NCBI GenBank assembly: GCA_051294375.1
Contig: CM119264.1
Coordinates: 15,525,473 to 15,589,472 of the forward strand
DNA length: 64,000 nucleotides
Reading direction: 5' to 3'
From: Paraspadella gotoi
Taxonomy: Eukaryota > Animalia > Chaetognatha
Each line of letters opens with the position of its first letter. The stretch's first letter is position 1. Shown here one piece after another: positions 4,511-58,248 of this stretch. The notes beneath the pieces are model-generated. The model was not told the DNA's origin. It made no database searches and worked only from the letters and a program-made list of their open reading frames with translations. Position numbers and translations under genes: made by a program.

Positions 4511-4518
4511 AGGGATAG

Positions 4519-5672: not shown

Positions 5673-5712
<40 letters not shown>

Positions 5713-10216: not shown

Positions 10217-10441
10217 TGAACAGACAGTAATTATTGTTATGTGTTAATGACAGAACCGTTCAATATAAGCGTCCCTGAGCTTCAGATCAGGCTGTAACAC
10301 CATGTTACAGGCGGGTTAAGCGCCCTGTCCCTTAACTGCCAGACGACGCACCGGGCTAAAACCCCGGACCTTGGGGTTGGAGCGAATGACTTGCCTCTGC
10401 ACCATGGCGCTGATGAACGGTTGTGGATTTAGTCCACCATA
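10217..10441 (-). mobile_element. Family C element
   Basis: Colinear with 40869-41102; twister at 10269-10339 with compensatory T1 (CTG/CAG); TSD not clear. Confidence 0.8.
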
Positions 10442-26800: not shown

Positions 26801-27816
26801 AAATGAGTTAAAATGGAAAAAACAAAAGTCACATTTACTTATTTTTACTTATATTTATTCATAATTATTATATCTATTTAAAATTTGATAGATGAATTGA
26901 AAAGTAAAGGAAAGTATGTGATTAAGCGGGATATAAATTTTTGATGGAAAAGAGTTTAAATTACAAAAACAAAAGACCCCTTTATTTAAATTTTTAAAAG
27001 TTTCTCTCTTTCTATTGATTGATTGATTAATTGACCAAATTATGCCAGTTGACCAAATTCTGTAAGTGACCAATTTCTGCAAGTGATTAAATTATGCCAG
27101 TTGATAAAATTATGCCAGTTGACCAAATTATGCAAGTTGACGAAATTAGGCAAGTTGGTATTGGTAATGATTGATAGATCAATTTATTTATAGATTTTTT
27201 TATAGATTTATTAAGAAGTCTGTTAATGTTATGATTTGTTATGTTACGATGAAATCGTGCGAGTGGAAATTAGTTTAAATAGAGAAAATATAAGTCACAT
27301 TTACTTGAATTTTTTTACTAATTTTAACCCGTAATTACTCTAATTATGCATAATTGGATGGATAGAATGAGATAAAATTTTGTGTTGGTAGGAAAGTGTG
27401 TTATTGAGCAGGATATAAAGTGTCAATGGAATCGAGGAATGGAAATGAGTTTGCATCAAAAAACCAAAGTCAAGTTGACTTGAAATTTTATTATTTATGC
27501 TTACTCATAAATGTTTTTATTAATTAATTAAATTTTAAAATTTTTAAAATCCCCTCGATAATCCCATTTCTATTGCCCTAAAATTAATTCATGCAACGTT
27601 TTACCGAAGTTGGTCAAGTAGTTTTATATGAAGCCTTCTGTACATATTTTGATTGGTTTGCGATCTTAATGATTATCAACAGTTATGGTAAAGATAGCCT
27701 ATGATCCATTGGACATAAGAAATGTTTGAGTAATAAGAGAGAACAAAAATGTTGGCCGTAATATATATGTATATATATATGTATTTGAATGAAACTTATT
27801 TTTTTCCCTCTTTCAG

Positions 27817-28008
27817 CCTGTGAATCGGAATCTCGCTCAAAGCCTTGGTCGCTGAAAGAATGGGATGCCCGTTCGGCCTTTTTGGATGCACAACAATCGT
27901 CTGAAGACATTTCGGCACCGTCAACCGCTGTCTTCCTGAACACTTTACGTGAAGAGAGTGTCGTAGCTGCTCTGCGAAAAATATTAGAGGTCATCGTTCA
28001 AAACTGGG
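27817..28008 (+). CDS. AAAS: AAAS/Aladin exon
   Basis: tttcag acceptor and G|GTAAT donor; ...WDARSAFLDAQQ...VIVQNW; phase-compatible with the next exon. Confidence 0.7.
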
Positions 28009-28231
28009 GTAATTTTTCAGGAAGTAAAAATGGAAAAGAGAGACATTTTGATAAACGTGTTCCAGTTAGGAAGAATTCAGGGTTAGTTTAAAAACGTTTC
28101 ATTTTCAATGATACAAGTTGAAATTTAAAATATCCCTCTATTACATTTTTCTAATTCAGTAATAAAAAATTTATTAAAAATATCAGATGGATTGGCTTTT
28201 TCGTTTGACCTGCAACTCTTCAGATGGGTTT

Positions 28232-29015
28232 CTTTTTATCGTCGCAATCGCTTTGCGTTTGCGACGATATTGTAACGCTTTTGCCCATAAGTGGCGTCGT
28301 CGTCGTTGGCGTTCCAAATTATAGATCGCCTTTTTTATGATTAAATTTAGGTATATGAAGCTGAAAATTTATATACAGCTTCTCATCATCGATGTGCTTT
28401 AAATTGAGTCTGGACAGTTATTAAATATGTTTTGTTTGTTTTATCAAAACAAACAAATTTTCTCTCTTTTATTTTCATATTTTTTTCTCTCTCTCTCTTC
28501 TCTTTTAATTACATGTCTCTCTCCCTCTCTCTTTTCCCTAGTCACTGATTCATAATCATAGGGGAAAAAAACGAGTCTGCAGCTGGCTCTGCAGGGGCTT
28601 ATTCTTTTTCTCTCTTTTCTCTTGCTGCTTCTGCTGCTGCCTTTTGAGTCTGCAGCTGGCTCTGCAGGGGCTCTTTCTTTTTCTCTCTTTTCTCCTGCTG
28701 CTTCTGCTGCTGCCTTTTGATTTCTTTCTTTTTTTCTGGGTGTCTCTGCTGCTGAAAATGATTTGGCTTCTTTCTTTCTCTGATTAATTTTTTCCCTCTA
28801 AAAACTTTTATTATCGCCATTTATTCCCAAATTTACATCCGAGATTTTCATGGATTTTTTTCGTGGATTATTTATTTTTTTTTTATTTTCTTTATTTTTT
28901 TCAAATTTGATTTTCTTTATTTTTTTCAAATTTGATTTTTTTAGTATCGAAATTTGTCATCAATCCAGATTTTTCTTATGCAATTGCGACGATCCTTATG
29001 CTTTTAAGATTTTTT
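28232..29015 (+). mobile_element. HINE/DINE-1-like (Helentron-derived) family 1, representative copy
   Basis: Subterminal inverted ATCGTCGCAA / TTGCGACGAT, ends in T-runs, CTG/CT-rich body. Other full or partial copies at ~2380-3137, 30556-30800, 31780-32245, 32452-34497, 42504-42930, 44204-45172, 58610-59230, 63845-64000, plus mirrors. Confidence 0.65.
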
Positions 29016-30020
29016 TTATGAAATTGGTACAACCATTATTAAAATTATCCAATATCCATTCATTTAAATTTTAATAAACAAGTTATCTTGCCCCTGATTT
29101 TGGACAGGCTTTGGTGGTTTAAGGCCTCAATCACTCTTACAAGATAATGCAAACTTTCAAGACTAGACTATATTATAATTAAAACCGATATAAAAGGGTG
29201 TAGAATGCATCAAATGAGCTCAGCTTTCTGAATCTATACTCCATTTTGGCCTAGTTTGAAGTTGATTTGAATGACCCTTTTTCTTAAGGGTCAAATATTG
29301 AAATTCGCCTCGATAGTTCTATTTGTATTCACATAAAGATCATTAATGCCAAATTTCAAATTTTTTGGTAACAAAAAACATGTACCTAATTTTATAATAT
29401 GAAGCCTTCTCAGTATAGGGGGTTTGTTGGTCTGCTTTTTTGTTTGAAAATTACTGCTACGCAATATATTTTTGTTTTACTTTATACTTTTCATGAATCA
29501 TATAATGGGTCATATTTTGAATCTTGTCCTAGGTCTGTCTAAATGATTTTTGGCTAAATTTTACTTTCGCCGATCGCGGTTTTGACGTCTTTTGAAAAAC
29601 TACTAAAAAATACTTATTTTTTAAAAAAATTTAAAAAAATATTACCTAATTACCCTAACCCTTTTAACCCTAACCAGTAACCACCCCTTGCCCTAAACGA
29701 CCCCTAAACCACTCTTAACCCTAACCCCTCCTTAACCCTGATTTTTTATAAGCTCTTATAATTATTTATCTTTACTATTATAACAATTTTGCATTAAATT
29801 AGCTAATAGATAATTTGGCATAATATTTAGCATAATTAGTTTATGCTAGATCGCGCCCTAAATTATGCTAAAAATATCTTTTCTGTGGAGTTTTATTCAG
29901 AGGCTATCACATTTGACAAGAATCTGTTTTTCGCAGCCACAATATTTTCAAAACAATAATTAATAATTTTTATTTTCAAATTTAAATTCACTTTTTAGTT
30001 CACTTTCGCGTTTTTCGTAG

Positions 30021-30193
30021 GTATTTCTGGATTGTTAGCGAGCTTTCGGTGGTCTACCTCCATATTCTCTAAACTTTATCCCCATCGCTCACCACCCTTT
30101 GATAATGTGATCACTCAGTTTTCGGCTTTCGGGGAAGATTGGAGCCAGACGAAAATCCGAGCTTTTGAATGGCATCCGCATACTCTGAAAGTG
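30021..30193 (+). CDS. AAAS: AAAS/Aladin exon
   Basis: LASFRWSTSIFSKLYPH...IRAFEWHPHTLKV resembles Aladin LCRWASSLHGSLFPH...RVFAWHPHTNKF; tag acceptor and gtgagt donor. Confidence 0.88.
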
Positions 30194-30283
30194 GTGAGTT
30201 TAAAAAATTTTTATTTATTGTACACATTAAAACAACACAAAAAATTCGATCTAGTATTGCGACGTTGGAAAAGGAGGTGATTC

Positions 30284-30397
30284 TATTGTCGGGCATTTCC
30301 TAAGTTCACCCCGCCTATAAGCATGACACTTTCAGTTGCGACCCGGTGGCTCATTGAGTAAAGCCATCAGCTCATGACCACGAGGTACTGGGTTCCG
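30284..30397 (+). mobile_element. 3'-truncated family A LTR (mirror at ~16787-16897 on minus)
   Basis: Matches the LTR start through the tRNA-like B box, then stops. Confidence 0.75.
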
Positions 30398-31896
30398 ATA
30401 ACCGTTAACCGTTATTAACGGTTAAAAATAATTTTAACCTAACCGTTAATATACCCCGTGTCCGTTCGCGAGTGACACCAAAAAAATCTTTACTGTACTT
30501 AAATATTTAATAAACATAATTCATAAGTATATCATTAGTTGGAGAACAACTTGACGTTTTTATCGTCGCAATCGCTTATACAGCTTCTCATCATCGATGT
30601 GCTTAAAATTGAGTCTGGACAGTTATTAAATATGTTTTGTTTACGTTTTATCAAAACAAACAAATTTTCTCTTATTTTTATATTTCTTTCTCTCTTTCTC
30701 TTTTCTCTTTTTATTACATGTCTTTCTCCCTCTCTCTTTTCCCTAGTCACTGATTCATAGACAAAGGGGAAAAAAATGAGTCTGCAGCTGGCTCTGCAGT
30801 AGAGCGTTCAAAGATAACAAAATATAAAATATTTAATTTCATTCATTATTGTTTTGATGGAATAAGGTTTGAAGAATTCGATGATGATAACCATTTTTTA
30901 GTATAGTTTCATCTTCCTTGTCGCCAGTGGCTATTTTTGAAGCATATAAGGTGCTATTAAAATGGCGCAACCATTGTAGAGTATGAGAAACTAAAATTAT
31001 CAAAATTTTATAAAAGTTATATCTAGCTTATATAATATGAAAATAAAGACCCATAACAATATTTTGGTAAGTTTATTTACAAATTTTATTAACAGTTTGT
31101 TAGCTATATTTATTAATAACTAGTAGTTAAAAATAGGCTAAAGTAAAAAAATAAATATTTTGAAATTTTAAAACCGGATTTTTGAATTCCTTGCAAAAAG
31201 TTGATATAAGAAAGTAAAATCTATTTTAACAAATTCTTTCATTAAGTTGGTTAAAAATATTAAAAACTATGATATTTGTTTAATTTTATAATTTTTGGCT
31301 TAAAATTATAATTTTTTTAAAATTTTGACTAACTTAATGACATAATTTTTTAATAAAAATTATATTTTCTTATATCAACTTTTTGCAAGGAATGCGAATC
31401 CGGGATAAAAATTTTTAAATTATTATTTTTTAACTTTAGCCTAATTTTTATTCATAATTATTAATAAATATAACTAACTTTTAATAAAACATAAAATTGA
31501 AAAATAAATTTACCAAAATATTTTTATAGGTCTTTATTTTTATATTTCAAAAGCTTATATAATATATAATTTTAAAAAAAAATAATTTGATTTATCATAA
31601 CTTATAATGTTTGCCCTATTTTATTAGCATTTTATATACATTAAAAATTGTCATTTCCGATAAGAAAGATGAAATTATACAAAAAAATGGTCATCACCAT
31701 TGAATTCTGCAGACCTTATTACAGTAAAATAATTATGAATATATTTTTTTTATTATATTGTTATATTTAAACGCTCTACTCTGCAGGGGCTTATTCTTTT
31801 TCTCTCTTTTCTCCTGCTGCTTCTGCCTTTTGATTTCTTTCTTTTTTTCTGGGTGCCTCTGCTGCTGCCACTGCTGATTCGTCTGAAACGATTTGG

Positions 31897-38346: not shown

Positions 38347-38783
38347 TGCTTTTGTAAAATAAAATTCGTTGCAAAAAAAAAAAAAAAAAATCAAACTTTG
38401 TAATTTTTTTAATTTTAAGATTAGATTTAACATTTTGAAATTTTAGCTATTATATACTTATTGCTATATAAAAATATAGCTCACTGGTGCCCATTATTGT
38501 ATAAAATTAAAAAATAAATTTACCAAAGTATTTTTATTGGATTTTGTTTTCATGTTCTATATGCTAAATTTTAATTTTCTAAAATTTTATCATTTTCACA
38601 TCATTCTGTGAGAGCTCTGATTCAGAAAGAGAGCGTCGCTCGTATCAAGTGACCCAACGGCGACAAAAAGTTCGGTCGAAACGTCGGCCGAATCGTCGGC
38701 CGAATCGTCCGCCATAGTTGTCCAAACCGACATCAACTGGTTAATTCCGTTCTCTTAAAAATATTCATATTATTTTGGGACAG

Positions 38784-39156
38784 GCGGTGGCTACGCATGA
38801 CGATACGATTCATGTTTACTACGGTCTCTCGGCCGAAAAGACGCTCATTCCAACGCTCAAACACCCGCGTCAGAAAAACGTTGCCGATCTTAAATGGCGA
38901 CCTTATTCCTCGTCTGGCCTTGGTGTTGCTGTTCAGGACGGCATTATTCTTTGGACGGTTGACCCAAACTCTCTCTCTGCCCGACCAGCGTCGTCCAGCG
39001 TCATGTTTTTTACTTTGCCGGGCCACCGACCAGTCACTTCTTTGGCCTGGGGCACCTACTCAGGGATGCTCTTCTCGGCTTCTCCGTGCGACGGGAAGGT
39101 CGTTGCCTGGGATGTATCTCGAGAGGGCGTCACCGCTCCTCTCATTGCCGTCAGTG
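38784..39156 (+). CDS. AAAS: AAAS/Aladin exon (WD40 repeats)
   Basis: AVATHDDTIHVY...LKHPRQKNVADLKWRP...WTVDPNSLSARP...PGHRPVTSLAW; cag/gtgagt boundaries; phase 0 join to the previous exon. Confidence 0.92.
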
Positions 39157-39405
39157 GTGAGTGATTTTTTTCCGGTAGGGTTTGTTTTGTTTTGTTTGTT
39201 TTTATCCTCTCAATTTTTTACCAGCGCGAGGATGCGCCGTATATGACATCGAGATAAGGAAGAATAAAATATAATGTTTTACTTGATAAATTAACGTGGG
39301 GAGGAAGAGGATGGTTTGTTAGATCAGGAGGGTAGTGCGGGGTAATTCGAAACGGGGGTATTTATTGTCACTCGAGAAGACAATTTCTAAATAAAAGAAA
39401 GAATC

Positions 39406-39477: not shown

Positions 39478-40230
39478 ACCACAAGATCCTCTTCTCTAAA
39501 TCTCAACTTCAAGAACTTAATTTGATAAGAAGTCTTGTTTTATGGCAACCAAACTCATTCAACAGAAGATGTCTCATTGGTAGTGGATCTATTGTTTACT
39601 TTATGATTTGTTTGCTGAAGATTATTCAGTCTATCTTTTTGTCTCCATTTGAAAATAATTGTTTTTATTTGATCATCAAATGTAATTAATACATTATCTA
39701 CTGATGAGAAAGACTTCTTGAAATCAAAGTTAAATCCATCGTCACACCTTCCCTGCAATATTACGTTCCAAGAGATAGTCATCTTTGGCACCAATATCTT
39801 AGAACTGTAACTCAATAAGTGCCACGCCCACTTCATCACGCTTTGGCGAGACTCCGTGACCCGGCCACATATTTCGGAACGCTGACTTATAAAATTAAAT
39901 AAAATAATTGTGTAAAAATTTTTTATAATTTTATAAAATACTTTTTTTCTAACCGAATTTTATATTTTTAAAAGCAGATTCACCATAACAATGCGTAATC
40001 ATTGATGTATTAGAGCTAATACATCGAGAAATACATTATAGTCATCAGTAATCACAAAATAAATAAGTTTTTATTTATATATAAACATTCTGTTTTCAAT
40101 AATTTATTTTAAATGTTAAATTGGTAAGCATATTTTTTAAAGATTTGTTTTTCAATCTGGTTGTTAAAAAATTTTAGGTAATAAGTTTAAACACTGTAAA
40201 GGAAAATTTAGAAGGGGAGAATTAAACAAT

Positions 40231-40616
40231 TGAAGAGACAGTAATAATTGTTATGAAATTGGTACAACCAATATAAAAATTATCCATTCATTTAATAAAT
40301 AAGCTATCTTGCCCCTAATAGTGACAAAAAAAAAACTGATATAAATAGGCATGAATCAAATAGACAATGTTTAATAATAACATGCATCGGCAAGTTCAGA
40401 GTCTTTGAGATTGTCCATGATATTGTCTCCAACAACAGAACCGTTCAATATAAGCAGTCCCTGAGCTTCGGATCAGGCTGTAACACGGTGTTTCAGGCGG
40501 GTAGAACTTTGGAACTTTAGAACTTTAGAACCCCGGACCTTTGGGTTGGGAGGCGAATGACTTGCCTCGGCACCAATGGCCACTGATGAACAGTTGGTGG
40601 ATTTTAGTCCACCATA
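40231..40616 (-). mobile_element. Family C element interrupted by a ~180-bp insertion
   Basis: Both termini present (TGAAGAGACAG and CCACCATA) with 4-bp TSD CAAT; part of the ribozyme core replaced by AGAACTTT repeats. Confidence 0.78.
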
Positions 40617-40868
40617 CAATTAATCTCGTGACTCGTTGGTTTTCCAGTCATGAACAAAATCTTTAGTTAAATAGATGGTAAAGAAATTCAAGATACAATG
40701 AATCTACACTAAGAGTTGCAGCCTAAACAACTGCAATAATATTGATTTATAAATTTGATTAGGAATATAAAAACATTTGTAAAAATGTAATAGAGAGACA
40801 TTTTGATAAACGCGTTCCAGTTAGGAAGAATTCAGGGTATAAAAACGTTTCATTTTCAAGGATACAAG

Positions 40869-41102
40869 TATGGTGGACTAAAATCCACCAACCGTTCATC
40901 AGCGGCCATTGGTGCTGGAGGCAAGTCATTCGCCTCCCAACCCAAAGGTCCGGGGTTCTAGCCCAGTGGTCGCCTAGCAGTTAAGAGGGACGGGGCGCTT
41001 AACCCGCCTGTAACATGGTGTTACAGCCTGATCCAAAGCTCAGGGACTGCTTATATTGAACGGTTCTGTCACTAACTCATAACAATGATCACTGTCTCTT
41101 CA
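40869..41102 (+). mobile_element. Solo LTR-like element, family C (tRNA-like head plus twister)
   Basis: TATGGTGG...TCTCTTCA with 4-bp TSD CAAG; the paralogous empty site GATACAAGTTGAAAT is at ~28110. A box at 40910, B box GGTTCTAGCC at 40954. Confidence 0.85.
40977..41050 (+). ncRNA. Type-P5 twister ribozyme candidate (family C)
   Basis: GCAGT-TAA-GAGG-GA-CGG-GGCGCT-TAA-CCC-GC-[CTGTAAC..GTTACAG]-CCTGA-T-CCA-AA-GC-TCAGG-G-ACTGC. Predicted cut at 41000|41001. This copy has a T1 mismatch that is paired in the other copies. Confidence 0.72.
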
Positions 41103-41232: not shown

Positions 41233-41974
41233 TATGGCAACAGCCGGGTTGCCTGTGATGCCCATTGGGATGGGGCACTCACTGTTGGCTTTGGGGGCTT
41301 CCGACCCTCAGTGACGCATCCAGTCACTGGCGCGGTTACCCTAGGACGGTCTCGCTTTGCCAACGCAGAGGGAAGTCGTTAGGACTGTGGATGGAACACT
41401 ACGCCTGGGATGGTGTGTTCCCCCTCTGAGCCAATGGATTTGGCTGAAGGATGACGGACGTGAGGCGGTGTGAATATACTGCCACAGGATCCCCGGGCCA
41501 AGACATCACTCAGGTTCCTCAAGCCTGAGAGGTGTCTGACAAGACTGTTACCAATAGTGGGAGAGAGAGAGCGCGAGTTGTGGGGCATACGGCGTTTGTC
41601 GTAGCGTACCCCAGGGGCATAGGCGTTTGTCGTAGCGTACCCGAAGTCGGCAGGGCATAGGCGTTTGTCGTAGCGTACCCTGAGAAGGTTGCGTGTTCGA
41701 ATGTAGGGCTCACCACTTATTGGCAACAGCCGGGTTGCCTGTAATGCCATTGGGATGGGGCATCTCACTGTTGGCTTTGGGGGCTTCCGACCCTCAGTGA
41801 CGGCATCCAGTCACTGGCGCGGTTACCCTGAGACGGTCTCGCTTTGCCAACGCAGAGGGAAGTCGTTAGGACTGTGGAGGAACACTACGCCTGGGATGGT
41901 GTGTTCCCCCTCTGAGCCAATGGATTTGGCTGAAGGAGATGACGGACGTGAGGCGGTGTGAATATACTGCCACA
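41233..41974 (-). mobile_element. Full-length TRIM family B (LTRs 41233-41486 and 41718-41974)
   Basis: Two ~255-bp direct repeats (minus strand TGTGGCAG...TGCCATA); 4-bp TSD ATAT (41229-41232 and 41975-41978); PBS TGGTGAGCCC after the 5' LTR; non-coding ~230-bp internal domain. Confidence 0.92.
41284..41364 (-). ncRNA. Type-P5 twister ribozyme candidate (family B; second copy 41770-41851)
   Basis: Minus strand: GTTGGC-AAA-GCGA-GA-CCG-TCCTAGGG-TAA-CCGC-GC-[CAGTGAC..GTCACTG]-AGGG-T-CGG-AA-GC-CCC-CAAA-GCCAAC. T1 is CGG/CCG and P5 is GTTGGC/GCCAAC. Predicted cut between 41338 and 41337. Confidence 0.8.
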
Positions 41975-43711
41975 ATATTATAATTAAAAACGCGATATAA
42001 AATGGCGTAGAATGCATCAATGCTTATAGTGAATACATTTCGGAATCGCCAGGAGCTCAGCTTTCTTGATTCTGTTACTCATTTTGGCCTATTTTGAATT
42101 TGATTTGAATGACCCTTTTTCTTAAGATTATAAATAGTTAAAAACGTCAATGCACCTGATGCTACTAAAAAATTTTAAAAAATTAAAAACGAAATTTAAC
42201 CTTTTTTGGCCCCCAGGGGTCCAGCCCCTCTCTTCTCAGGGGATGAATATTAAAATTCGCCTCGATAGTTCCATTTATATCGTTATTAGAACTCTTAAAT
42301 GTAAAATTTCATGAAATTCGATCAGGTAAGTTTGGTGGGAACAGATTCTGGTCTAAAAAAACCACAATCTCATTCTGTAGAATTTAGTTCAGAGATTTGG
42401 TCCGAACCAATTCTCGGTCAGAAAAACAAGGAGATTATGGATTGCCATTTTGACTTGTTACTTAAGGAGTCTTTATTTATTTACAATGTAATTGGTTACA
42501 TACTTTTTATCGTCTCGTAACGCTTTTGCGCATAAGTGGCGTAGTCGTCGGCGTTCCAACTTATCGATCGCCCTTTTGATAATTAAATTTGGGTGTGTGA
42601 AGCTGAAAATTTATATACATCTTCTCATCATCGAGGTCCTTGAAATTGGGTGAGGACAGTTATTAAATATGTTTTGTTTACGTTTTATCAAAACAAACAA
42701 ATTTCCTCTATTATTTTTATCTCTCTCTTTTCCCGAGGCTGATTCATCGGGAAAAAAAACGAGTCTGCAGCTGGCTCTGCAGGGGCTTTCTTTCTTTTTC
42801 TCTCTTTTCTCCTGCTGCTTTTGCCTTTTGATTTCTTTCTTTTTTTCTGGTTGCCTCTGCTGCTGCCGCTGCCGCTGCTGATTTGTCCGAAAACGATTTG
42901 GCTTCTCTCTTTCTCACTCTCTTTCTCACTATATATATATATTAGGCCGGAACAGGTTGAAAACTAGAAGTTCTTTCAAATAAATAATGATAAAGTGACT
43001 GTTAAAGAATATGAAAATAAAAATAATTTTAAAAAATTATCTTATTAATAAGCGCACGGAAGCATTTAAAGATTATCTTATTACTATATATAGTTAAAAA
43101 TTTTTTTTGAATTTGTCAATTTTTTTTAATGGATTCTGATAGAGCTTTAAAAGTTAGATAAAGGTTATTAATACAAATTTTAAAAATTTTTTTGTTTTAT
43201 TGATAAAAATTTTAAAAAATTAGAAAATTCAGCCAATGATGATGATGATGATGATGATGATTTTTTAACGTTTTTTCTGTTTTTAACCAATTTCTTGTCA
43301 AAATTTTAAAAAATTGTAGTACTAACTTTCATTTAACTTTTCAAGCTCTATAAGAATCCGTTCTTAAAAACTAACTTTTTTAAAAAAAATTTTTGTCATT
43401 TGTTATATATTAATAAATATTTAAAAGCTTCAGTGCAACAACCCAATGAACTAATTCAAAAAGTTGCATTGAAAATCGATTTAGTAATAGAAGGAAAAAA
43501 GGAATTTTTTTGAGAGAATTAAAAGTTATAAAAAGTGTTCAATTTTGGCCCGCCTTAATATATATATATTAAGCCAAGTTAATATTATAAATAACTTAGT
43601 CTTCAAGTATCAAATTCGATTTTTTTGTATCAAAGTTTATTATGGATCTAGATTTTTTTTATGCGATTTCGACGATCCTTATGCTTTTAAAATTTTTGTC
43701 TTATTATTGAG

Positions 43712-43995
43712 GTGGCGGCGTTACTCTAATCTCGTTCTCACCCGACGGTCATCGTCTCTTGGTTGCAACACCTTTCTCGGAGTTTCAAATTTGGAGTTCT
43801 GGATCGGACTGGACGAACGAGAAATGGACAAATCTTCGTAATCGAGTCATTGCCTGTACCTGGAGTCCAGACAGCACGACGCTTCTCTTTGCTGTAGACG
43901 GGGACAGCCTATTATATTCTGTCGACTTTCAAGCTGAATGGAACAGCGATGGGGAGAGGAAGAGCGAGGAACAGAGGGCGCGTTCCATTTTGGAC
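43712..43995 (+). CDS. AAAS: AAAS/Aladin exon (WD40 repeats)
   Basis: GGGVTLISFSPDGHRLLVATPFSEFQIW...CTWSPDSTTLLF...ARSILD; gag acceptor, gtgagt donor. Confidence 0.9.
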
Positions 43996-46900
43996 GTGAG
44001 TGATCTGAATAGTAATCGGTTTTGCGGTAGCCCAGGACGGGTTTACGGTGCTCTCTCACTCATCTAATCAATGCCTGAGAAGAGGGGGCAAACCCTTTCT
44101 TTCACGGTTAATACCCCGTGACACCAAAAAAATCTTTACTATACTTAAATATTTAATAAACATAATTCATAAGTATATCATTAGTTGGAGAACAACTTGA
44201 CGTTTTTATCGTCGCAATCTCAGCATTTGCGACGATATTGCAACGCTTTAGCGCATAAGTGGCGTTCCAAATTATAGATCGCCTTTTTTATGATTAAATT
44301 TGGGTGTATGAAGCTGAAAATTTATATACAGCTTCTCATCATCGATGTGCTTAAAATTGAGTCTGGACAGTTATTAAATATGTTTTGTTTACGTTTTATC
44401 AAACAAACAAATTTTCTCTCTTTTATTTTTCTATTTCTTTCTCTCTCTTTTCACTTTTAATTACATGTCTCTCTCCCTCTCTCTTTTCCTGAGTCACTGA
44501 TTCATAGAGAAAGGGGAAAAAAAATGAGTCTGCAGCAGGCTCTGCAGGGGCTCTTTCTTTTTCTCTCTTTTCTCCTGCTGCTTCTGCCTTTTGATTTTTC
44601 TTTTTTTCTGGGTGCCTCTGCTGCTGCCACTGCTGATTCATCTGAAAACGATTTCGCTTCTTTCTCTCTCTGATTAATATTTTTCTTCTAAAAACTTTTA
44701 TTATCGCCATTTATTCCCAAATTTACATCCGAGATTTTCTTAAATATTCTAAATATCAATCAGAATAATATTTTTTTTCAATATATATTTACTTTATTAT
44801 TTTACTTTACTTTACTTCATTTTAGTCTTTACTTCACTTTGTCAGTCTGATTCAAGTTTCACTTTCTTTTGTCTGGGTATGTTGACAGTGTTTAGAGAGG
44901 TCGCATTCGATCAAACTGCTCGCTTATGCGGGCTTAAAGTAAAACAAAAGTACCTTCAATAATGTCTCTCCAGACTAAGCACTTGCTAAAAATAAAACTC
45001 GAAAATAAGTTATTTTACTGTTTTATAATTATTATTTTTAATTTTTTTAAATTTTTTTAAAAAATTTTTATTTTCTTTATTTTTCTCAAATTTGATTTTT
45101 TAATATCAAAATTTTTCGTCAATCCAGATTTTTCTTATGCGATTGCGACGATCCTTATGCTTTTAAGATTTTTATGTAGAAGTTTCATTTCGTGTTTAAT
45201 TCATTTACTATTCTTTGTTAAATTTTTTATCTAACACAGTAAAATTGGCAAAAAAAGACAATGTTCTTGATTGAATTTTTCAAAAATTTTATATCATAAG
45301 AAATCCCTATTACTGGTCTAATCAATGGCGTATCTGAATTATCGTAATGTTGAGTAATTTCTTAGTTATGATTTTTATTTATTTTTTTAATTGTAAATCT
45401 TAGGTTTTCTTTATACAATTTGTCCAATGAGAAAAATGAAGAAAAATAATTTAAAAAAAATTTATCCAATGAGAAATGGTACGCATTTTTTTGGTGTCAC
45501 TCGCGAACGGACACGGGGTACAACAGTCTCAAGTGTACTGCCATGAATACAGTTATAAAAAATGCATTTACTGTACTCGTTGGATCCAGAAGTTCTTAGT
45601 TTTAATTTTTAAAATCAATCCTTGAGGGCATGGGGAAATAGAAGGAAAAAATCATATTGTGGAAGACCACGACATAGAGAGTAGGGAGACATTTATTATG
45701 TATGAGGTAAAACATTGAAGAGACATAATATAGTGAATATGTTGAAACATAGGCAATAACATGTGTACAGTTCGAAGGTTGAAAACGGTTCTCTCGTGGC
45801 TACGGCCACGACGGAAGAAACCCGTTGAAGCCCGGGACGACGAGACCAATGACCGGAGTTCTGAGGTCATGTGGTCGTTGAGGGAAAAGAGAGAGAGAGT
45901 CGAGGTAACTCGGCCTCAATATGTATATTTCGCGAAGAGAAGAGACGAGAAAATGTATCGCTAGAAAAAATAAACCGAGGAGCAGGAGGAGGAGGAAAGA
46001 AGAGGAAGGGGAGAATGGGATGCCAAGTTCCTCTGCGTCCTCCTTCTTGACCAAGATGTCATGTCCAGGCCCCCAATGACGTGGCATGACATCGTCATGC
46101 TTCCCTCTGGACTAAAAAAGTGAGAGAAGTCACAAACTAAAAATATTGGATTTCTATGAAAACCTATTTAAATTATTTATATTATTATAAGTTCATTTTT
46201 TAAAAAAATTGTCAGTCACTGACAAGTTATGCCACTGCACCATGACTGATATTGATTCTTAAAGAAAGATTCTTAAAGTCTGAGCCAAAAATGCGGCAAA
46301 CTTCTGACGCAACCATGGTCGTAAGTCTATTTCCATCAGTTTAGGGCAAGTATTTTTGCATTTTCCAAAGGCTGGTTGCCTTCTTTGGTCTTGAGGAACA
46401 TGTTGTTGAGGGGGAATATAGAATTTTTCAGTGCAGGTTTGAGGGATCATGTTATTAATTATCAATTATTATAATTATTAATTATTCACGTAGCTATAAT
46501 GTATTCTTTCCAGGGTCCAGTTCTTTCATTTTCTGATTTTGTTTCCCATTTCTTGACCGGAGAATGATAAGAGCAGGCTTAATTTTTGTGTTGATTCTTG
46601 CAAATTGATTCCTTGCAAATTGATTTTTTGCAAATAAAGTTTTTCCTTAGATTTCTTTGATTCTCAAGTGCAGACCGACTTACCAACTGTCAGTCTTGGC
46701 AACCTTGGTTTGAGTTGAAACTGAATCAGAAATGATGGCAGTTAGGGTAGTTTGGGAAGAAGTTGAGTAAGGAATTTTATTCTGAATAGATTGATTGCAA
46801 CTGGCCTTAGCTTTTGCGGCCTGGGTTGAAGCATTGGCTTGGGTGAAATAAGTTTGAGCTGAACTGGAGACAGATTGGGTTTTTAAAGGCAGAGGGGACA

Positions 46901-47133
46901 TGTGAGTATTATGCACCAAAGTAAGTAGGTAGATACATTATATTCTTGTCCAGAATTCGTGGGTTTGCATTATTAGTTTTCCAAGTTGCCAATATATTCT
47001 AGGTCGTCAGTATTGATTTGATCTTTAAAGTTTATCTCTGCAATTTTCGGAGTTATGCTCAAGATTTAGGGTAAAAAGGATCAAATTAATTAATTACCGC
47101 TAATAATCGTGGCCAGTCCGACATTGATTGCTG

Positions 47134-47370
47134 TATGGCATCAGCCGGGTTGCCTGTGATGCCCATTGTTGGCTTTGGGGGCTTCCGAACCTCAGTGACG
47201 CCTCCAGTCACTGGCGCGGTTACCCTAGGACGGTCTCGCTTTGCCAACGCAGAGGGAAGTCGTTAGGACTGTGGATGGAACATTACGCCTGGGATGGTGA
47301 GTTCCCCCTCTGAGCCAATGGATTTGGCTGAAGGATGGTGAACGTGAGACGGTGTGAATATACCGCAACA
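47134..47370 (-). mobile_element. Solo LTR, family B
   Basis: Colinear with 41233-41486; 4-bp TSD GCTG on both sides; twister motif at 47168-47248. Confidence 0.88.
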
Positions 47371-48680: not shown

Positions 48681-49409
48681 GCGATGATAACCAAAGGATT
48701 GATGCTATGATAACCAAATGATGGATGCCATGATAATCATTCAGTGATGCAATGATAGAGAGAGAGAAAGACAGAGCTGGACAGCTATTGGAAGGCCGCT
48801 GTACAGTCACTGCAGAGCATGAAATTTGAAGAAATAAAAAAAGGCAAAAAAATGTTACAATTGTTTACAATTGGAAATTGTTATAATTTTTTCCAATCAT
48901 AGGTTGTAAAAGATTTTATTTTCATTTGTATTAAAATTAAGATATAGCTTCTCCTTAAAAAGGTCTTTATTTCACATGTTTTTTATTGATTCAAAGATTT
49001 TTTTATGAATTTCATCTTTAATATTATTTACTGCAATATGTAAATTAGATTAAAGCATTTCTATATACTAATTTGGATATTATAATGAGTACAATAATCT
49101 CATTTGTATATTGTAGTAAATCATAATAAAGTAGAAATTCAAACAAAAAATACTTGAATCCAAATGTAATATGAAAATTTCAAAGCTATTTCAAGATGAG
49201 AAGCCATATCTAAATTTTTAACTTATGATTATTGCAGACTTTTATAAAACTTAATCGTAATTCATAATAAATTTTATTTAAAAAAAAAAGGAAGTCCAGG
49301 CCAAAACTATAAAAGCATAGTTTTTATATAACAATGTCGGATCTGCCTACGATAATTAAGCAGTAATCAGCTAATCAGATGATAAACCATAATATTTTTT
49401 TAAATTTTT

Positions 49410-49630
49410 TTTCCACTCGCATCATTTTTTCAACTCTCATAATTTTTTCAATTTGCATCATTTTTACAATTTGCATCATTTTTTCCACTCGCATCATTTC
49501 GTTAACTTGCATCTTTTTTTTAACTTGCATCTTTTTTTTAACTTGCATCTTTTTTTTAACTTGCATCTTTTTTTTAACTTGCATCTTTTTTTTAACTTGC
49601 ATCATTTTTTAAAATTGCATCATTTTTTTC
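49410..49630. repeat. 18-bp tandem repeat (AACTTGCATCTTTTTTTT)n inside a family 2 element
   Basis: Tandem units; explains the spurious MQVKKK and TCIFFL ORFs. Confidence 0.85.
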
Positions 49631-50710
49631 ACATTAATTAATTAATTAAAACATTTATAAGTAATAATTGGTAGTAATATATTAAAGATTAAAGTAAATG
49701 TGACTTATGTTTTTTCTATTTAAACTCATATCCATTGGCCCAATTCCGTAAAAACTTTATATCTAGCACACTTCACACACTTTCTTACCCGCACACAAAA
49801 TTTTATCTCAATCTATTAATTCGAGTAATTATGGGTTAAAATAAGTAAAAAGATTTTAGTAAATGTGACTCATATTTTTTTCTTTTAAACTCATTTCCAC
49901 TCGCACGATTCCATCGAAACTTTATATCCAACTTTCCTACCCACACAGAAAATTTCATTCCAATCCAACCACCCAATCACGAGTTATTTGAGCTTTTTGC
50001 TAAGGTGAGATGGACGGACATCATTTTTTTTCATAACTTATCATAATTCGATGTTCTGACATGATGTAAGTGAATGCCCGACAAGATTAAGGGGGCGGAC
50101 CGACAAAGTGAACTATAGAGTCGGGATCTGCTGAAAGCAGATCCGACGAAAAAAGCGTGACGCCGACGACAACGCCGACAACATCACAAAGAAGCCTGGC
50201 CTTCGCTTTATCTCGCCAAGATATAATGGTTTATTTCTATATTAACCTCATAGGGCGCGTTTCCTATCACCCTCTTCACTTCATTCCGTCTCCGAGCCAA
50301 ATTTCTGTCACGCTTAATTCCTCTGTGATCGCATTTTCACGCGTGGAAGCCTCTCTGGATGTACTTGAGGCTAACATCTTTAGAGGAGGTCTTTCTCTTT
50401 TTACATCGCCAACGTGACTTTTTTCTCGCTTCTTTTGTTGTTACAGATACGTATATATATTATATAGATTAATTGTCTCATGATTGTTAAAATACAGAGT
50501 CTAAAAAAATGCTCACGGCCCAATAACGTAACGACTACCTATTAATTCCGTAATCATTTGCAAAAGTCAAAACTAGTTATAAAAATTTGGAGCTCGGTAA
50601 CACGTTTTGCTCATGATTTTAATTAGGCTGTTAATATTTTGAATTTGTTTTTTAAGATCTTATCAAAGAATACATGTATAAATTTGTAGCTAAAAACTGT
50701 ATGAACTATA

Positions 50711-51679: not shown

Positions 51680-51895
51680 ATTATTGTTATGTGTTAGTGA
51701 CAGAACCGTTCAATGTAAGCAGAACCTGAGATTCGGATCAGGCTGTAACACCGAGTTACAGGCGGGTTAAGCACCCCGTCGCTCTTAACTGCTATTCGAA
51801 CACAGGGCTAGAATCCCAGACCTTTGGGTTGGGAGGCGATTGACTTGCCTCCTGCACCAATGGCCGCTGATGAACGGTTATTTTATGCCACCATA
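51680..51895 (-). mobile_element. Family C element, slightly 3'-truncated
   Basis: Colinear; twister at 51719-51792 with T1 CCG/CGG and P1 GGTGCT. Confidence 0.8.
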
Positions 51896-52053
51896 CCATG
51901 ATGGAAAACAAAATTGTCGCGGTTACTTTCCAGCTATTTTTCGGCATTTTAATGTAAGAATCATTGTGATTAAACTTTGTTTTGTTGTGTCTTGAGATAT
52001 TTGAAATTAAAGACAAAGTCTTGATACATCAACGATTTTATTTTTATTGTTCA

Positions 52054-52342: not shown

Positions 52343-52821
52343 ATAAATAAGTAAACAGACTTAAACTAAAATATTTAAATTAATTCAGATTTAAATGAAT
52401 AAAGAAGTGAAATTTAGATGAAATGGAAATAAAGATGTTGAGAGATAGTTAAGTGAAAGAGTAAGTGAAAAATAAGAAAAAGAAAAAGCTCAAAATGAGC
52501 CGTCGGCCTGAGAGATATTTGAGTTGCACTTGGCCTCTTTTCGCCTGGGTTTCTACCGGACCCGTCCATGTCGCACTCTACCACAATAGCCTCTCAGCCT
52601 ATGACAAACCAATGACCCGACCAAATCGTCAGCATCCCCCATTGTTGACCCGAGGGGGGGCCAGCTCATTTTGAGCTCTTTCTTTTTCTTATTTTTCACC
52701 TACTCTTTCACTTAACTATCTCTCAACATCTTTATTTCCATTTCATCTAAATTTCACTTCTTTATTCATTTAAATCTGAATTAATTTAAATATTTTAGTT
52801 TAAGTCTGTTTACTTATTTAT
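52343..52821. repeat. Fold-back element: ~157-bp near-perfect inverted arms around a ~163-bp GC-rich spacer
   Basis: 52343-52500 is the reverse complement of 52664-52821. Confidence 0.88.
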
Positions 52822-52837
52822 ATATATATATTATATT

Positions 52838-54165
52838 ATTCCTCCCCAAGGGATTCCTCCCAATGGAATTGCTCCCACACGGGATTCCTCCAAAAGAAAT
52901 TCCTCCCACACGGGATTCCTCCCAAAGGAATTCCTCCCATGCGGGATTCCTCCCACACGGGGTTCCTCCCCACAGAATTCCTCCCCATGGAATTCCTCCC
53001 ACGCGGGATTCCTCCCACACGTAATTCCTCCCACACGTAATTCCTCCCATGCGGGATTCCTCCCACGCAGGATTCCTGCCACGCCAGAATGCGGGTCTCT
53101 CGATCCTCCCAATGCGGATTCCTCCTACGCGGGATTCCTCCTACGCGGGATTCCTCCTACGCGGGATTCCTCCTAACGCGGGATTCCTCCCAGCGGGATT
53201 CTCCCAACAGCGGGCTTCCTCCCACGGCGGGATTCCTCCTACACGGGATTACTCTCACATGGGATTCCTCCCACGGGGGATTCTCCCACGTCCAATAAAA
53301 AAAAAGTTTGAGCAAACAATGTCGGATCTGCCTACGATAATTAAGTGGTAATAAACTAACTTGGTCAACTTGCATAATTTAATCAACTTGCATTATTTGG
53401 TCAACTGGCATAATTTGGTCAACTGACAAAATTTGGTAAACTGGCATAATTTGGTAGACAGGCATAATTTGGTCAACAGGCATAATTTGGTCAACCTGCA
53501 GAATTTGGTCAACCTGCAGAATTTGGTCAACTGGCATATTTTTGTCAAATGGCATATTTTTGTCAAATGGCATAATTTGGTCAATCAATCAATCAGAGAG
53601 AGAGAGAGAGAAACTTTAAAAAATTCAAATAAATGTGTCTTTTGGTTTTCTAATTTGAACTCTTTTCCACAACTACGATTACATCAAAAAATTTATATCC
53701 AGCTTTATCACATACTTTTATTCCCACAAACAAAATTGTATTTTAATGAATCAATTTTTTTCATTGAAACAAGAACATGCAACTAGAAAGTTAATCACAA
53801 TTTAAGGGGAGGAATCCCGTGTGGGAGGAAATCAGTGTGGGAGTTTTCCCGTGTGGGAGGAATCTTGTGTGGGAGGAATCCCGTGTGGGAGGAATCCCGT
53901 GTGAGAGGAATCCCGCGTGGGAGGAATCCCGTGTGGGAGGAATCCTGCGTGGAAGGAATTCTTTGGGGAGGAATCCCGTGTGGGAGGAATCCCGTGTGGG
54001 AGGAATTCTATGGGGAGGAATCCCATGTGGGAGGAATTCCTTGGGGAGGAATCCCGTGTGGGAGGAATCCCGCGTGGGAGGAATCCCGTGTGGGAGGAAT
54101 CCTGCGTGGGAGGAATACCGTGTGGGAAGAATCCAGTTGGGAGGAATCCCGTGTGGGAGGAATAC
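52838..54165. repeat. Two inverted arrays of a 16-bp GC-rich unit (CCCGTGTGGGAGGAAT) at 52838-53290 and 53806-54165, flanking an 18-bp array (53361-53585)
   Basis: Units read directly from the sequence; the arrays are reverse complements of each other. Confidence 0.88.
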
Positions 54166-56304
54166 CACAGCCACCACTGACATGATAACCATGACCTTTT
54201 ATATCTTGTAAAATGGGGGCAGTAGAGAAATATAAAAAATTCGATCATTAAGTCAGTCAATGAACCCTTTCCAATGGGCTATTATGAGAAATATTTTTTT
54301 CTTAATTAAAATGGATGATAAATAATAGAATTAAATTCATTGCTATATTTAAAAGAAAATTATCAATACAATTTAACACAATGATGTCTTGCTTTGTCAA
54401 ACATGTTGCCAGCTATATAATTTTTTAAAACTTTATGATAAACAAGCAGTGATTCAAGCTTTTAGTTTGCAGTTAAAGATAATGAAAAATGACGATTTTT
54501 TTTCACAGACAAGAAGGTAGATGTCCAGATTGTTTATATCAAGCTGAAAACATTTTTGTATTTATCATTTTTGATATTTAAAAAGATATTTTATCAAGCT
54601 ACAACATAAATTTTTGCTTTTTTTTTTTACTTTAACTGAAAAATATAAGCAATTTTATGGAATAAAAAAAATTTAATAATAATCAGAATGTAATTTAATT
54701 CAGTCTTTCCTTTTTCAAATTACAAAAGAAAAATAAAAAATTTCATATGCCTTCATTGAAATTTTTAAAGCAAAAAACTGTTATACTTTTAACTCTGATT
54801 TAAACAAAAGCTGTGTAAAGATTTATGGATTCAATTTAATAAAACTCTTTTAGAAAGGTGTCCCATGATTAGGGCTTTAATTTGATACCACACCCACCTT
54901 GCTACCTCTTTTCTTTCAAAAGTTATTTAAAATAATAACTTTTTTTAAACTACGCAGTACAAATCTTTAAATAAAAATTTTAGCAAAGCGGGAGTATCTC
55001 ACTTATTTCTATTAGTACAATACTTAAATTTCAAAATAAAACTTGAAGAAATTTTTTTTGTCATTTAGAGACATATCACTTTCAGATGTACCCCTCGTAT
55101 AACAATTGATTTATTTATTTCTCCAAAAAAGCCTAATTAGAAAAGTTGAAATTTTTTCAAATTGTTGGAAAAAAATTTCGTCCAACCTATGCTCATTGAG
55201 AATAATGGTTTTGCATAGAAAATCAAAATATCAAAAAAATCAAAAAATCTGCCTCTAGAAAAATCGAAAGGCTAAAGGCTGATTTTTTTAGAATTGCAAA
55301 TTTTTTTTCCTAACTCAAAATCAATTATTCTCAAGTTTCAAAATATTTTTTTTCAAAATCATTCAATCAATTTTTTTTATTAATTTAAAATGTTTTTATG
55401 ATTTTTTTTTGTTTGAAAGAATTGAAAAAAAGTAAAAAAATATAGCAATTATATAAGGTTTTTGAAAATACCTCTAAAATATTAAATAATTAGACACAAG
55501 GAGAGTAAGAAGAGAAAACTTCCCATTCATAAAAAAAAAATTTTGGGGGAAATTAAGTAATTCTTTTTTTTCTGTTACACAAATTATTTCTTTTATTTTT
55601 AAAATATTTTTAAAATAAAATTCTGAATGTAGTAAGTCATATCTTTTCAAATACAAAGCAAGCTTCAAGCAAATATACGATTGGGAAGAATTCTTTAGAA
55701 AAAAGAGTTCATCTAAGTTACAGGGGTGGGACCCTATATCGAGACAAAACTTAACATCCTGCCCTGTCTGAACGATTTGAGATACAATAATAAAATTAGT
55801 GGCAAACGTTTTTTCTGGATTTTTACTTTCACATACAATTAAACAAATTAAATTTTTAAGCAACTAAAAGGTATTGTGGATGTTTTCAAAACATTTAGTC
55901 GTTTTTATGCGCGCGCATTGTATTGCATAGTGCATACGATAAAAGCCATACTTGTTAATATTTTTAAGTGGTCGTTTCTGAACATGACTGGGTTATGTCT
56001 TATCGTCAATTCACCTGATTTTAAGCTTTTCATCACTATTCAAATTCAACCTATTTAATTTTTTGAGAGAAAGAAGAGAGAGACACATGTAGAGTAAAAG
56101 AGAAAGAGAAAAGAGCAAAAGATTAAGAGAGAATATTTAAGTATTATTTGCCTGCTTGACCACTTTGGCTATCAGCGGGCTTTCTTTTACTTTGTTTCTG
56201 ACACACTTTCTGTTTTACTCTTTAATATTGTTAAAAAATCTTTTTCAATTGTTTTAAGCATCCATGGTATATCCTTTCTTTTCGTTGTTGTATAGAGATT
56301 TACA

Positions 56305-56414: not shown

Positions 56415-57051
56415 GTTTTAAGCAAAATATTCATTATACACTACTAACTAACTTTTTACCCTAAAAAAAATCTTAAAAATACGAAGATTTTTAAGGTCAC
56501 GTGACCGATATTGACCAATCACAGATATCGATTGGCTATTTTTTTAGAAATTGAAAAAAAGGGGTGTGATCCCGAATATAGATCCTCTTGATAAATAAGA
56601 GGTGAAAACAGTTGGAGACAACCTCTTTTGGAAGTATTTGTATGCATTAAATAATTTTATGCTGTTGAGAAATAATCTTTTTATTCAGTTTTAGGGAGGT
56701 CATATTACATATTAAAACTTATTTACTGGCCAATAAATATATTTGACAATGAAATTAATCGACTTTTCCAAACCGTGACAATTTTTTTTTCCATCATGGT
56801 AGAACCATATTTATGACTGAGAGATGGATACATTTATATTCATCCATTTCTCAGTCACTTAAGTGGGGTGTACTAAGTAATAACTTTTCTTGACAATTTC
56901 TTCGTAACTTCTTTCGAAATTATTTATTTTACTTTTCCTAAATAAAAGTAATGTTGATTGGCTCAGTGGTCGTCAGGAGCAAAAAGGTAAAGAGAGAAAG
57001 GAGAGCTGGTTTTAGAGAATGCATTGTACAATTGGGCCCTCTTTCCACCAG

Positions 57052-57312
57052 GTCTCAACCTTACGCGAGGATTTCGCCCAGAAGGAGGTAGTGAGTGTCG
57101 AACAGACAGTGGCTAACGCTTTTAATCTCCGTAACTACAAAGATGTCTTCATCAACCGCGTCGACGCTCGTGAAGTCGTCCTCGATCTTGTCGAAATTAG
57201 CTTCAAGGAACAGTACATTAGTCGTGCAGACATGTGGAATCTCAAAAAAATTCTTGTTGGAGGCTGTGTTTATCTACAGAAGAAGATAGATTTTTTCAAC
57301 GCCCGGATGCAG
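57052..57312 (+). CDS. DEPDC5: DEPDC5 exon
   Basis: VSVEQTVANAFNLRNYKDV...LDLVEISFKEQYISRADMW...CVY; cag/gtatt boundaries, phase 0. Confidence 0.92.
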
Positions 57313-57970
57313 GTATTTTTCCTAGTTTTGGCATATTAAAAAGTTCAGATTTTAATTAATAAATTATTGCCCGAGGCATATAAAGAATATGAATATAAAG
57401 AGCATGAAGAAACGATGGTCGGTGCTTTACCGAAAAGAAAAGCAACGTTACAATGTTCAATGATCCTGAAAACGCTGAAAAGATTGTTTATGAGTTAGTG
57501 ATAGGGTGTGCCAAATTTCTAAAGTTTTGAGCTCTTTTCCCGCTCTTTGAGCCGTAGGCCTCTCGAACTAATTGATCTCCATTCTCCAGGAATGCTGACT
57601 ATTGACTAATTTATTGACGGGAGAGGACAAGTTGAAACTTTTCCTCCAGTTTCGACTTCTGAAATGTATCATGCTCGACATTTGGGTGAATCTGCGATCT
57701 TATAAGTTGACCTCGGTCTAGAAAATAATTAAACCTTTTAATCTCTCTATATTGATATCTTCTCTCAAAGTTGAAGCTTTAGTAGGGATTAGTAGGAAGT
57801 CGCTATATCGAAAGAAGCCAGCGGTTTTTATTTCGCCAGACGGGCTTAAGCCCATCTTGGCGTGATTTTGGTTCGCCTCTGCTTTTTTGTGACCGTTGTC
57901 GTCATCGTGCTTCTTTACAATCGAAAATTGTAAAGTGTGTAACCATAGGAAGCTAAAAATTTAGTTATAG

Positions 57971-58248
57971 TATGGCAACAGCCGGGTTGCCTGTGATGCC
58001 CTTTGGGTTGGGGCATCTCGCTGTTAGCTTTGGGGGGCTTCCGACCCTCAGTGACGCATCCAGTCACTGGCGCGGTTTCCCTAGGACGGTCTCGCTTTGC
58101 CAACACAGAGGGAAGTTGTTAGGACTGGATGGAACACAATGCCTGGGATGGTGTGTTCCCCCTCTGAGCCAATTGTATTGGCTGAACGATCGTGGATCCC
58201 CGGGCCAAGACATCACTCAGGTTCCTCAAGCCTGAGAGGTGTCTGACA
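57971..58248 (-). mobile_element. Deleted family B TRIM (LTR plus part of internal domain)
   Basis: Matches the LTR, then jumps to the internal GGATCCCCGGGCC...GGTGTCTGAC segment; twister TAA mutated to AAA. Confidence 0.8.

Follow-up and report, generated by a model that had tools for sequence, protein, structure and literature searches.

What purpose might be served by a short palindrome that stands, in LTR after LTR, where a ribozyme motif would have a helix? The question arises at positions 41339 to 41346 of the window, the whole 64-kb stretch of AT-rich animal DNA analysed here. The original prediction was that this site is the P1 helix of a twister ribozyme, reduced to a self-complementary sequence, such that cleavage would depend on pairing with a second copy. 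Our analysis indicates that the feature is real: it is a variant twister in an animal TRIM that resembles LTR retrozymes, with self-cleavage predicted from the sequence.

Short LTR elements with a variant twister

The window includes exons of two host genes:

38745-39164 and 43711-44067, plus strand: Aladin (AAAS) exons, PF25460 (profile positions 33-150 and 153-249)
57016-57339, plus strand: exon of the IML1/DEPDC5 gene

Its sequence is that of a noisy long read or an unpolished assembly with fold-backs. The stretch 15503-23378 recurs inverted at 23867-31685, and 3417-4066 recurs inverted at 4588-5235; both fold-backs turn within LTRs of the family called A below, at about 23867 and 4066-4088. 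Since the arms differ almost entirely by indels (104 gap events and 9 substitutions in 7554 aligned columns, six of the nine substitutions being three swaps of adjacent bases), these duplications are probably products of amplification or read chimeras. Tandem arrays with units of 22 bp, 16 bp and 18 bp are found at 21300-22215, 25036-25900, 52800-54280 and 49370-49690. The LTRs that concern us belong to three related families, listed here with the state of the link, as we call the stretch between the T1 strand and the cut site:

Family B
41233-41974, minus strand: non-coding two-LTR element of 742 bp, LTRs of ~254 bp (TG...TA), core of 233 bp
41233-41486, minus strand: its 3' LTR, TG...TA, target duplication ATAT after it
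41487-41719, minus strand: its internal non-coding region
41720-41974, minus strand: its 5' LTR, ATAT before it, second twister with the cut-site U at 41825
41715-41707, minus strand: PBS-like motif TGGTGAGCC, common to families A and B
47133-47370, minus strand: solo LTR, target duplication CAGC, link intact, P4 changed
57970-58252, minus strand: 3' LTR with its 5' part deleted, plus a piece of internal region; link intact at 58086-58079
Family A
23242-23867, minus strand: element with both LTRs, the 5' one truncated where the fold-back turns at 23867
4088-4648, minus strand: 5' LTR (4648-4360, link 4494-4489), internal region and partial 3' LTR
3189-3445, plus strand: solo LTR, link TGGCCG, 3' strand of P4 deleted
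6978-7168, plus strand: decayed LTR, link TGGCGG
Family C
40869-41102, plus strand: solo LTR, TA...CA, duplication CAAG, sense in an Aladin intron, one mismatch in T1
10216-10441, minus strand: LTR, link GGCGCT at 10324-10319
51680-51896, minus strand: decayed LTR, link GGTGCT, G of T2 lost
40222-40617, minus strand: LTR split by an insertion, duplication ATTG, link lost

Families A and B have the layout of a TRIM, in which a brief non-coding core is flanked by a pair of short LTRs, with a ribozyme motif in each LTR; family C is seen in the window only as solo LTRs, with no two-LTR element. The PBS-like motif starts with TGG and lies directly 3' of the 5' LTR in both A and B. In A, a short stretch of G precedes the 3' LTR and may be read as a polypurine tract; B has none that is clear. 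Target duplications are of 4 bp (ATAT and CAGC in B, CAAG and ATTG in C, GTAA across two A pieces), with none found at the C LTR ending at 10441. The GTAA stands in the flank before 4648 and in the flank after 23242, and the A elements at 4088-4648 and 23242-23867 are probably the same insertion. Family B is abundant: four runs gave 6672, 9268, 3086 and 550 contigs, with 3086-9268 in the three DNA runs. The internal region of the B element contains three copies of a ~28-nt repeat (41583-41680). A joint from 41716 to 41232 was considered as the junction of a circle and rejected, being the placement of contigs on the other LTR.

Upstream of the twisters are segments that resemble tRNA promoters:

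4518-4590, minus strand: tRNA-like segment of 73 nt that precedes a family A twister, its A and B boxes at 44-nt spacing
23396-23468, minus strand: tRNA-like segment, family A, directly upstream of the twister
40902-40974, plus strand: tRNA-like segment, family C, directly upstream of the twister
41422-41433, minus strand: A-box-like motif in the family B LTR

Using general A- and B-box patterns, we found both boxes at 44-nt spacing in four of the five LTR halves tested (both A and both C, not B), an arrangement met in 4-9 per 2000 shuffles; this tRNA-spacing test took the place of a looser first one, dropped as uninformative because 122-169 of 1000 shuffles matched. The family B LTR has no B box at tRNA spacing. 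ARAGORN reports the segments of A and C only at a relaxed threshold, with none at its default, and none of the four sense strands examined has a run of four T or an AATAAA.

The motif of the B 3' LTR, all on the minus strand, can be laid out as follows:

41284-41364: P5-permuted twister motif
41364-41359 and 41289-41284: P5
41355-41353: P2'
41351-41350: GA
41349-41347: T1'
41339-41346: link TCCTAGGG, self-complementary, with a predicted 8-bp duplex with a second copy
41338-41336: UAA, predicted to be cut between 41338 and 41337
41335-41332: P2
41331-41330: T2
41329-41309: P3
41307-41305 and 41296-41294: P4
41304-41297: L4

This order, P5-P2'-GA-T1'-P1-U/AA-P2-GC-P3-P4-L4-P4'-P5 with the cut at the slash in UAA, is that of type-P5 twisters in the accessible portion of PMC5408937, and it agrees with the twister table in the consulted part of PMC8501958. 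The likeness extends to the conserved GA, UAA, T2 and L4, which are retained across all three families, and to a covarying T1. The UAA cut-site loop and the GA before T1' are present in A, B and C, with G replacing the U before the cut site at 58078 in the B copy at 57970-58252. T1 occurs in four compensating versions (UCC/GGA, CGG/CCG, CCG/CGG and CUG/CAG), the CUG/CAG of the C copy at 10216-10441 being changed on both sides relative to the CCG/CGG of the 51769 copy, and T2 is GC/GC with L4. P4 has 3-5 bp, P5 has 5-7 bp and P2 has 3 bp with a bulge or mismatch. Unlike a standard type-P5 twister, the motif has a P1 that is a 6-8-nt palindrome, a P2 of three pairs, no Rfam match and a predicted pairing of copies. 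Within one strand P1 comprises just 1-2 pairs, at +2.7 to +5.6 kcal/mol; because a full P1 would form only as a duplex of two copies, we class the motif as a variant of type P5. Rfam gave no match at the gathering threshold and seven at E<=5, none a twister or a hammerhead. A pattern spanning the families matched five times in the window and never in 100 shuffles.

For comparison, 25 of 59 loci in viral contigs (L001-L059) parse cleanly as type-P5 twisters with long P1 hairpins, many of them from phage contigs of 70-150 kb. Their 10 distinct links are 20-27 nt long and all form hairpins, and their P2 has four pairs, as against three with a bulge or mismatch here. Two of the loci, L005 and L006, are type-P1-like twisters 2.9 kb apart on one contig. 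A scan of viral contigs for short links gave no full parse among the 120 matches listed, and a metagenome scan with the link left free gave 118 loci with no credible twister and no new family; the few metagenome loci that passed T1 and P4 lack the rest of the motif and lie in GC-rich DNA.

The weakness of P1 and P2 raises the possibility that the motifs cut in neither form, with competing folds winning and the structure serving another RNA role. Such a reading would account for the missing Rfam match and for the fact that unconstrained folds never display the full set of twister helices. Nonetheless, the phage twisters likewise miss the active fold in the same energy model, the retained core and the compensating versions of T1 argue for a working ribozyme, and family B, abundant in the three DNA runs, has an invariant core. 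We regard a complete loss of cutting as improbable.

The palindromic link and its retention

The plus strand of 41339-41346 reads CCCTAGGA and the minus strand TCCTAGGG, which fills the whole gap between T1' (41349-41347) and the TAA (41338-41336) of the B 3' LTR. Re-reading of the coordinates confirmed the claim of a palindromic link of 6-8 nt between the T1 strand and the cut site in three families; in all three it occupies the gap from T1' to the U exactly, with zero spare bases. Family B has TCCTAGGG in three copies and TCTCAGGG in one. Family A has CGGCCG at 4494-4489, 23776-23771 and 23373-23368, thus in both its 5' and 3' LTRs (the last two positions being those of the element at 23242-23867), and again in the fold-back mirror at 23872-23877 on the plus strand. 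Two A copies were absent from the original list: that at 3189-3445 (the "3203" copy), with a TGGCCG that is still self-complementary, and the decayed one at 6978, ~76% identical, with a TGGCGG that is not. Family C has GGCGCT at 10324-10319 and, on the plus strand, 40994-40999, and GGTGCT at 51775-51770; its 40616 copy, the twelfth copy overall, has lost the link. Counting each LTR in the window once, 9 of 11 links are fully self-complementary with G-U allowed, the two others being the decayed A 6978 copy and the B 5' LTR. This count leaves out the mirror at 23872 and merges 4488 with 23770 into a single LTR, given their common diagnostic bases and the GTAA in both flanks. GGTGCT had been offered as support for the palindrome, which it does not provide: in that copy (51680-51896) L4 has changed from AAGC to AATC, such that the G of T2 is gone as well, and its duplex reaches just -3.8 kcal/mol. 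The change from GGCGCT to GGTGCT would fit CpG decay.

The link had also been described as too short for a hairpin. That is nearly right, but a tetraloop closed by a single pair (A and C) or by two pairs (B) is possible, at +4.1 (A), +5.6 (C) and +2.7 (B) kcal/mol.

The 5' LTR of the B element at 41233-41974 has an aberrant link:

41826-41833, minus strand: link of the B 5' LTR, reading TCTCAGGG

The original prediction allowed for either a mutation or a base error. TCTCAGGG differs from TCCTAGGG by a swap of neighbouring bases, the type of error that also occurs between the fold-back arms, and the two LTRs of the element differ by six gaps, this swap and one further substitution. Among the matches listed, contigs placed on the B 5' LTR, none of which spans the locus, have A at 41830 in 1028 of 1121 depth units in run X1, 9627 of 11164 in X4, 414 of 500 in X5 and 17 of 19 in X9. 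A second swap, at 41701-41702, is contradicted by most contigs among those listed. The matter thus settles towards a base error: in our judgement, TCTCAGGG is very likely a long-read error rather than a private mutation.

The three families differ in the bases of the link and retain its symmetry. From the centre outward, the pairs in A, B and C are G-C, U-A and C-G, then G-C, C-G and G-C, then C-G, C-G and G-U, as read from a structure-anchored parse (B proved not to be alignable with A and C in MAFFT). The palindrome is thus a case of retention through change, in three related families. The two central pairs would close loops of 0 and 2 nt within one strand, and can therefore form only with another copy. 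The predicted self-duplexes have energies of -10.7 (A), -10.0 to -11.0 (B) and -8.3 (C) kcal/mol, and with the outer bases fixed only 3 (A), 7 (B) and 8 (C) of the 256 possible central tetramers give an equally stable self-duplex. As for the level expected by chance, 42 of 776 4-mers in three LTRs are Watson-Crick palindromes, and 32 of 774 6-mers and 16 of 772 8-mers are fully self-complementary with G-U; since the families are related, the three palindromes are not three independent draws. Variation between copies is in agreement: in run X5 (670 contigs), the only positions between 41280 and 41370 that vary at 2% or more are 41318 and 41322, in the loop of P3, and in runs X10-X12 (1, 1 and 5 contigs) the only differences are at 41316-41322, all in that loop. 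Because almost the whole motif is invariant at the 2% level, the invariance of the B link is weak evidence. Covariation of the central pairs, the absence of link variants at or above 2% in X5 and the energies of the swapped dimers given below all agree with the claim that the link can form a duplex with a second copy. From the modelled pairing, the link looks as if it has been selected to pair with a second copy, and we consider it likely that two links do pair, whatever the purpose.

An alternative, which we consider quite unlikely, is that the link is a minimal hairpin or spacer with a symmetry that is an accident of P1 shrinkage; single copies would then cut, and sense solo LTRs would be harmful and be removed or mutated. 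Loop deletion in any hairpin would leave a palindrome, and there are just three families, related to one another. Against this, there are three Watson-Crick types in the innermost pair and two in the next, which imply that P1 shrank independently three times or that the duplex has been under selection, and so few central tetramers match the observed stability. The same alternative draws on the Aladin intron, which has three elements: the B element at 41233 and the C copy at 40616 are antisense, and the only sense solo, C 40869, has an A-C mismatch that breaks T1. These data give no support to the proposal that solo LTRs in host introns are inert; the elements are too few for a test and, if anything, are as active monomers would leave them. 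The B solo LTR at 47136 was not counted as intronic, because the open reading frames at 47785 and 50112 have no Pfam match. The C solo LTR at 40869-41102 sits within a MITE-like repeat in the Aladin intron, with kin at 18914-19128 and 28024-28236.

Probable pairing of two copies and its proposed consequences

Transcription would, we propose, begin within the 5' LTR ahead of the first twister, with RNA polymerase III as the likely enzyme, and continue through both LTRs. The two links would pair with each other, the base that follows T1' in one copy pairing with the base that precedes the U in the other, and each core would then consist of the P2'-GA-T1' strand of one copy and the part from UAA to P4 of the other. 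In a two-LTR transcript the swapped fold would be nested throughout, the internal region forming a closed domain, and it could start from a kissing duplex of two copies that are each folded in cis. Both cut sites, which lie 403 nt (A) or 487 nt (B) apart, would be cleaved, releasing a unit of ~403 nt or 487 nt. Because it is without a terminal repeat, this piece would need circularisation, which is likely, as in retrozymes (PMC4918200, PMC7761336); the circle could then serve as template for a Gypsy-type reverse transcriptase that primes at the PBS. With one link only, the circle would cut itself slowly, and in its predicted fold the junction lies inside a helix that is not part of the twister.

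The energies favour the swap. Relative to two cis copies, the swapped homodimer is lower by 16.3 (three A copies), 13.4 (B 3' LTR) and 11.7 (C 41000) kcal/mol, and by just 2.7 kcal/mol for the TCTCAGGG copy. In whole transcripts, the swapped fold is below the cis fold by 8.9 kcal/mol for A and by 1.3 kcal/mol for B, where one of the two links is the aberrant one. Left unconstrained, the B transcript already folds with both P5 helices paired crosswise. In this model, which ignores pseudoknots, the swapped folds of whole transcripts still lie above the unconstrained minimum, by 21 kcal/mol in B and 30 kcal/mol in A.

The behaviour of single copies is harder to read from such models. In single-copy folds the link or its neighbours are caught in competing helices. 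At 23700-23776 on the minus strand, the A link and the cut-site U pair over seven bases with a stretch ~60 nt downstream; on the modelled fold, this is possibly a built-in off state of the single copy. The active monomer fold lies 7.8-20.7 kcal/mol above the best fold (six copies; model without pseudoknots), a gap that was considered as a sign of silent monomers and rejected because it overlaps that of the phage P5 twisters (8.0-14.7 kcal/mol, 10 links). The model therefore offers no indication that a monomer is inferior to an ordinary twister.

This leaves room for an unlikely alternative, in which each twister cuts well alone, with the link as a P1 of 1-2 pairs and a tetraloop, and the palindrome has a different pairing function: it would be, for instance, a kissing or dimer-linkage site that unites two RNA genomes for packaging or strand transfer, or would keep the LTRs close to each other. 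Palindromic dimer-initiation sites occur in retroviruses and Ty elements. Covariation points to pairing between copies, not to its purpose, and the overlap with the phage controls is in keeping with active monomers. Moreover, P1 is dispensable in the accessible part of PMC5408937, where twisters without it cut at almost the wild-type rate, and in the consulted text of a large screen, limited to type-P1 twisters, P1 flaws did not reduce cleavage (PMC11662667); the portion available of PMC8501958 calls P1-less cutting inefficient. The exact fit of the palindrome between T1' and the U in three families, with no spare bases, argues against a pairing site unconnected with cleavage, as does the same anatomy in hammerheads with dimer-enhanced cutting (in the source text available for these).

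The prediction that cleavage is confined to two-LTR transcripts thus stands only in its first part: pairing is favoured, but silence of the single copy is not established, P1 being dispensable and the energy gap overlapping that of phage twisters. We lean slightly towards a domain-swapped pair that would cut far better than a single copy, with strong enhancement by pairing. The preference for pairs is probably quantitative, a strong enhancement, rather than absolute. A stricter version, which we offer tentatively as the less probable one, is that the twister is an obligate or near-obligate swapped dimer, a counting device that would cut when there are two LTRs per transcript and be silent in the circle and in solo LTRs, within an animal LTR retrozyme with tRNA-derived promoters that has converged on the dimeric hammerhead design. 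Even so, silence of solo LTRs would be a matter of concentration, since solo LTRs that bear promoters could pair in trans.

Relation to known elements and ribozymes

The precedent invoked in the original prediction, hammerheads that cleave as dimers, is exact: the accessible text of PMC7229834 and PMC4209133 describes 1-2 pairs capped by a palindromic tetraloop. Among axolotl hammerheads with one or two pairs and a tetraloop, monomers cut 6% and 22% and dimers much better (PMC7229834, part consulted), and in PMC4209133 the need for a dimer is interpreted as protecting monomeric circles. Dimer-dependent hammerheads of type I occur in amphibian retrozymes and in Penelope-like elements (PMC7229834, PMC4209133 and PMC6765202). 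Like them, the motifs described here have 1-2 pairs and a palindromic tetraloop by the cut site, occur in tandem copies and would form a swapped double ribozyme, the swap here being predicted. They differ in ribozyme class and in their host, here a true LTR element with a PBS-like motif and 4-bp duplications. Twisters are known to do without P1, which makes reliance on a second copy less compelling here than in hammerheads. Dimer-gated cutting is known for hammerheads, with no twister case in the literature searched (most subscription papers fell outside its scope); within the same scope we found neither a natural dimeric twister nor a twister in the LTR of a TRIM. The dimer of the rice twister is a crystal artefact only (PMC5408937, accessible part), and the consulted part of PMC10085705 reports that no new twister permutations were found. 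If the pairing of copies does gate cleavage, a second ribozyme class would have reached the same answer to the survival of a self-cutting circle, and there would be one reason why nature keeps a helix that can be dispensed with in vitro. A twister requiring a complementary partner to fire would also amount to a simple two-input RNA switch.

Plant LTR retrozymes (PMC4918200 and PMC7761336, accessible text) are likewise non-coding, with a ribozyme in each LTR, a 4-bp duplication, a PBS (a PBS-like motif here) and solo LTRs. Here, by contrast, the host is an animal, a twister replaces the type III hammerhead and the LTR has tRNA-like boxes; the unit is 403-487 nt rather than about 600-1000 nt, and the circular RNA is a proposal. 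Metazoan retrozymes lack LTRs and a PBS according to the consulted part of a review. If the proposal is correct, the elements described here would extend LTR retrozymes to animals, and would point to a class of twisters missed by Rfam in very abundant repeats.

Helenus TRIMs (PMC10886601, portion available) have LTRs in which a tRNA-derived segment carries A and B boxes; a tRNA-like counterpart with both boxes is seen here in A and C, and the A box only in B. Also in common are 4-bp duplications in animals and, putatively, a Gypsy-type PBS. In the accessible description their tRNA-like segment is mostly near the 3' end of the LTR, before a T-rich stretch, whereas here it is upstream of the twister, with no T4 run. 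A search of the accessible Helenus consensus file (PMC10886601) with nine twister strings found no twister context, in a search that would miss strings broken by line ends, and a short-string search of that file did not find the PBS string TGGTGAGCC of the window. Another animal retrotransposon, Perere-3 of Schistosoma mansoni, has T-variant twisters with a weak or variable P1 (PMC8501958, part consulted); these are of type P1 and single, at the 5' end of a non-LTR element, with P1 derived from the target site, and the word dimer is absent from that paper.

Two remnants in the window are of the Gypsy type, with no twister LTR beside either of them in the window:

59394-60800, plus strand: remnant of a Gypsy-type reverse transcriptase, interrupted by an AT-rich insertion
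11756-12052, minus strand: Gypsy-type RNase H fragment, weak match

Our guess is that the mobilising partner is a CsRn1-like element; CsRn1 has a tRNA-Trp PBS and a 4-bp duplication in the accessible text of PMC2582038.
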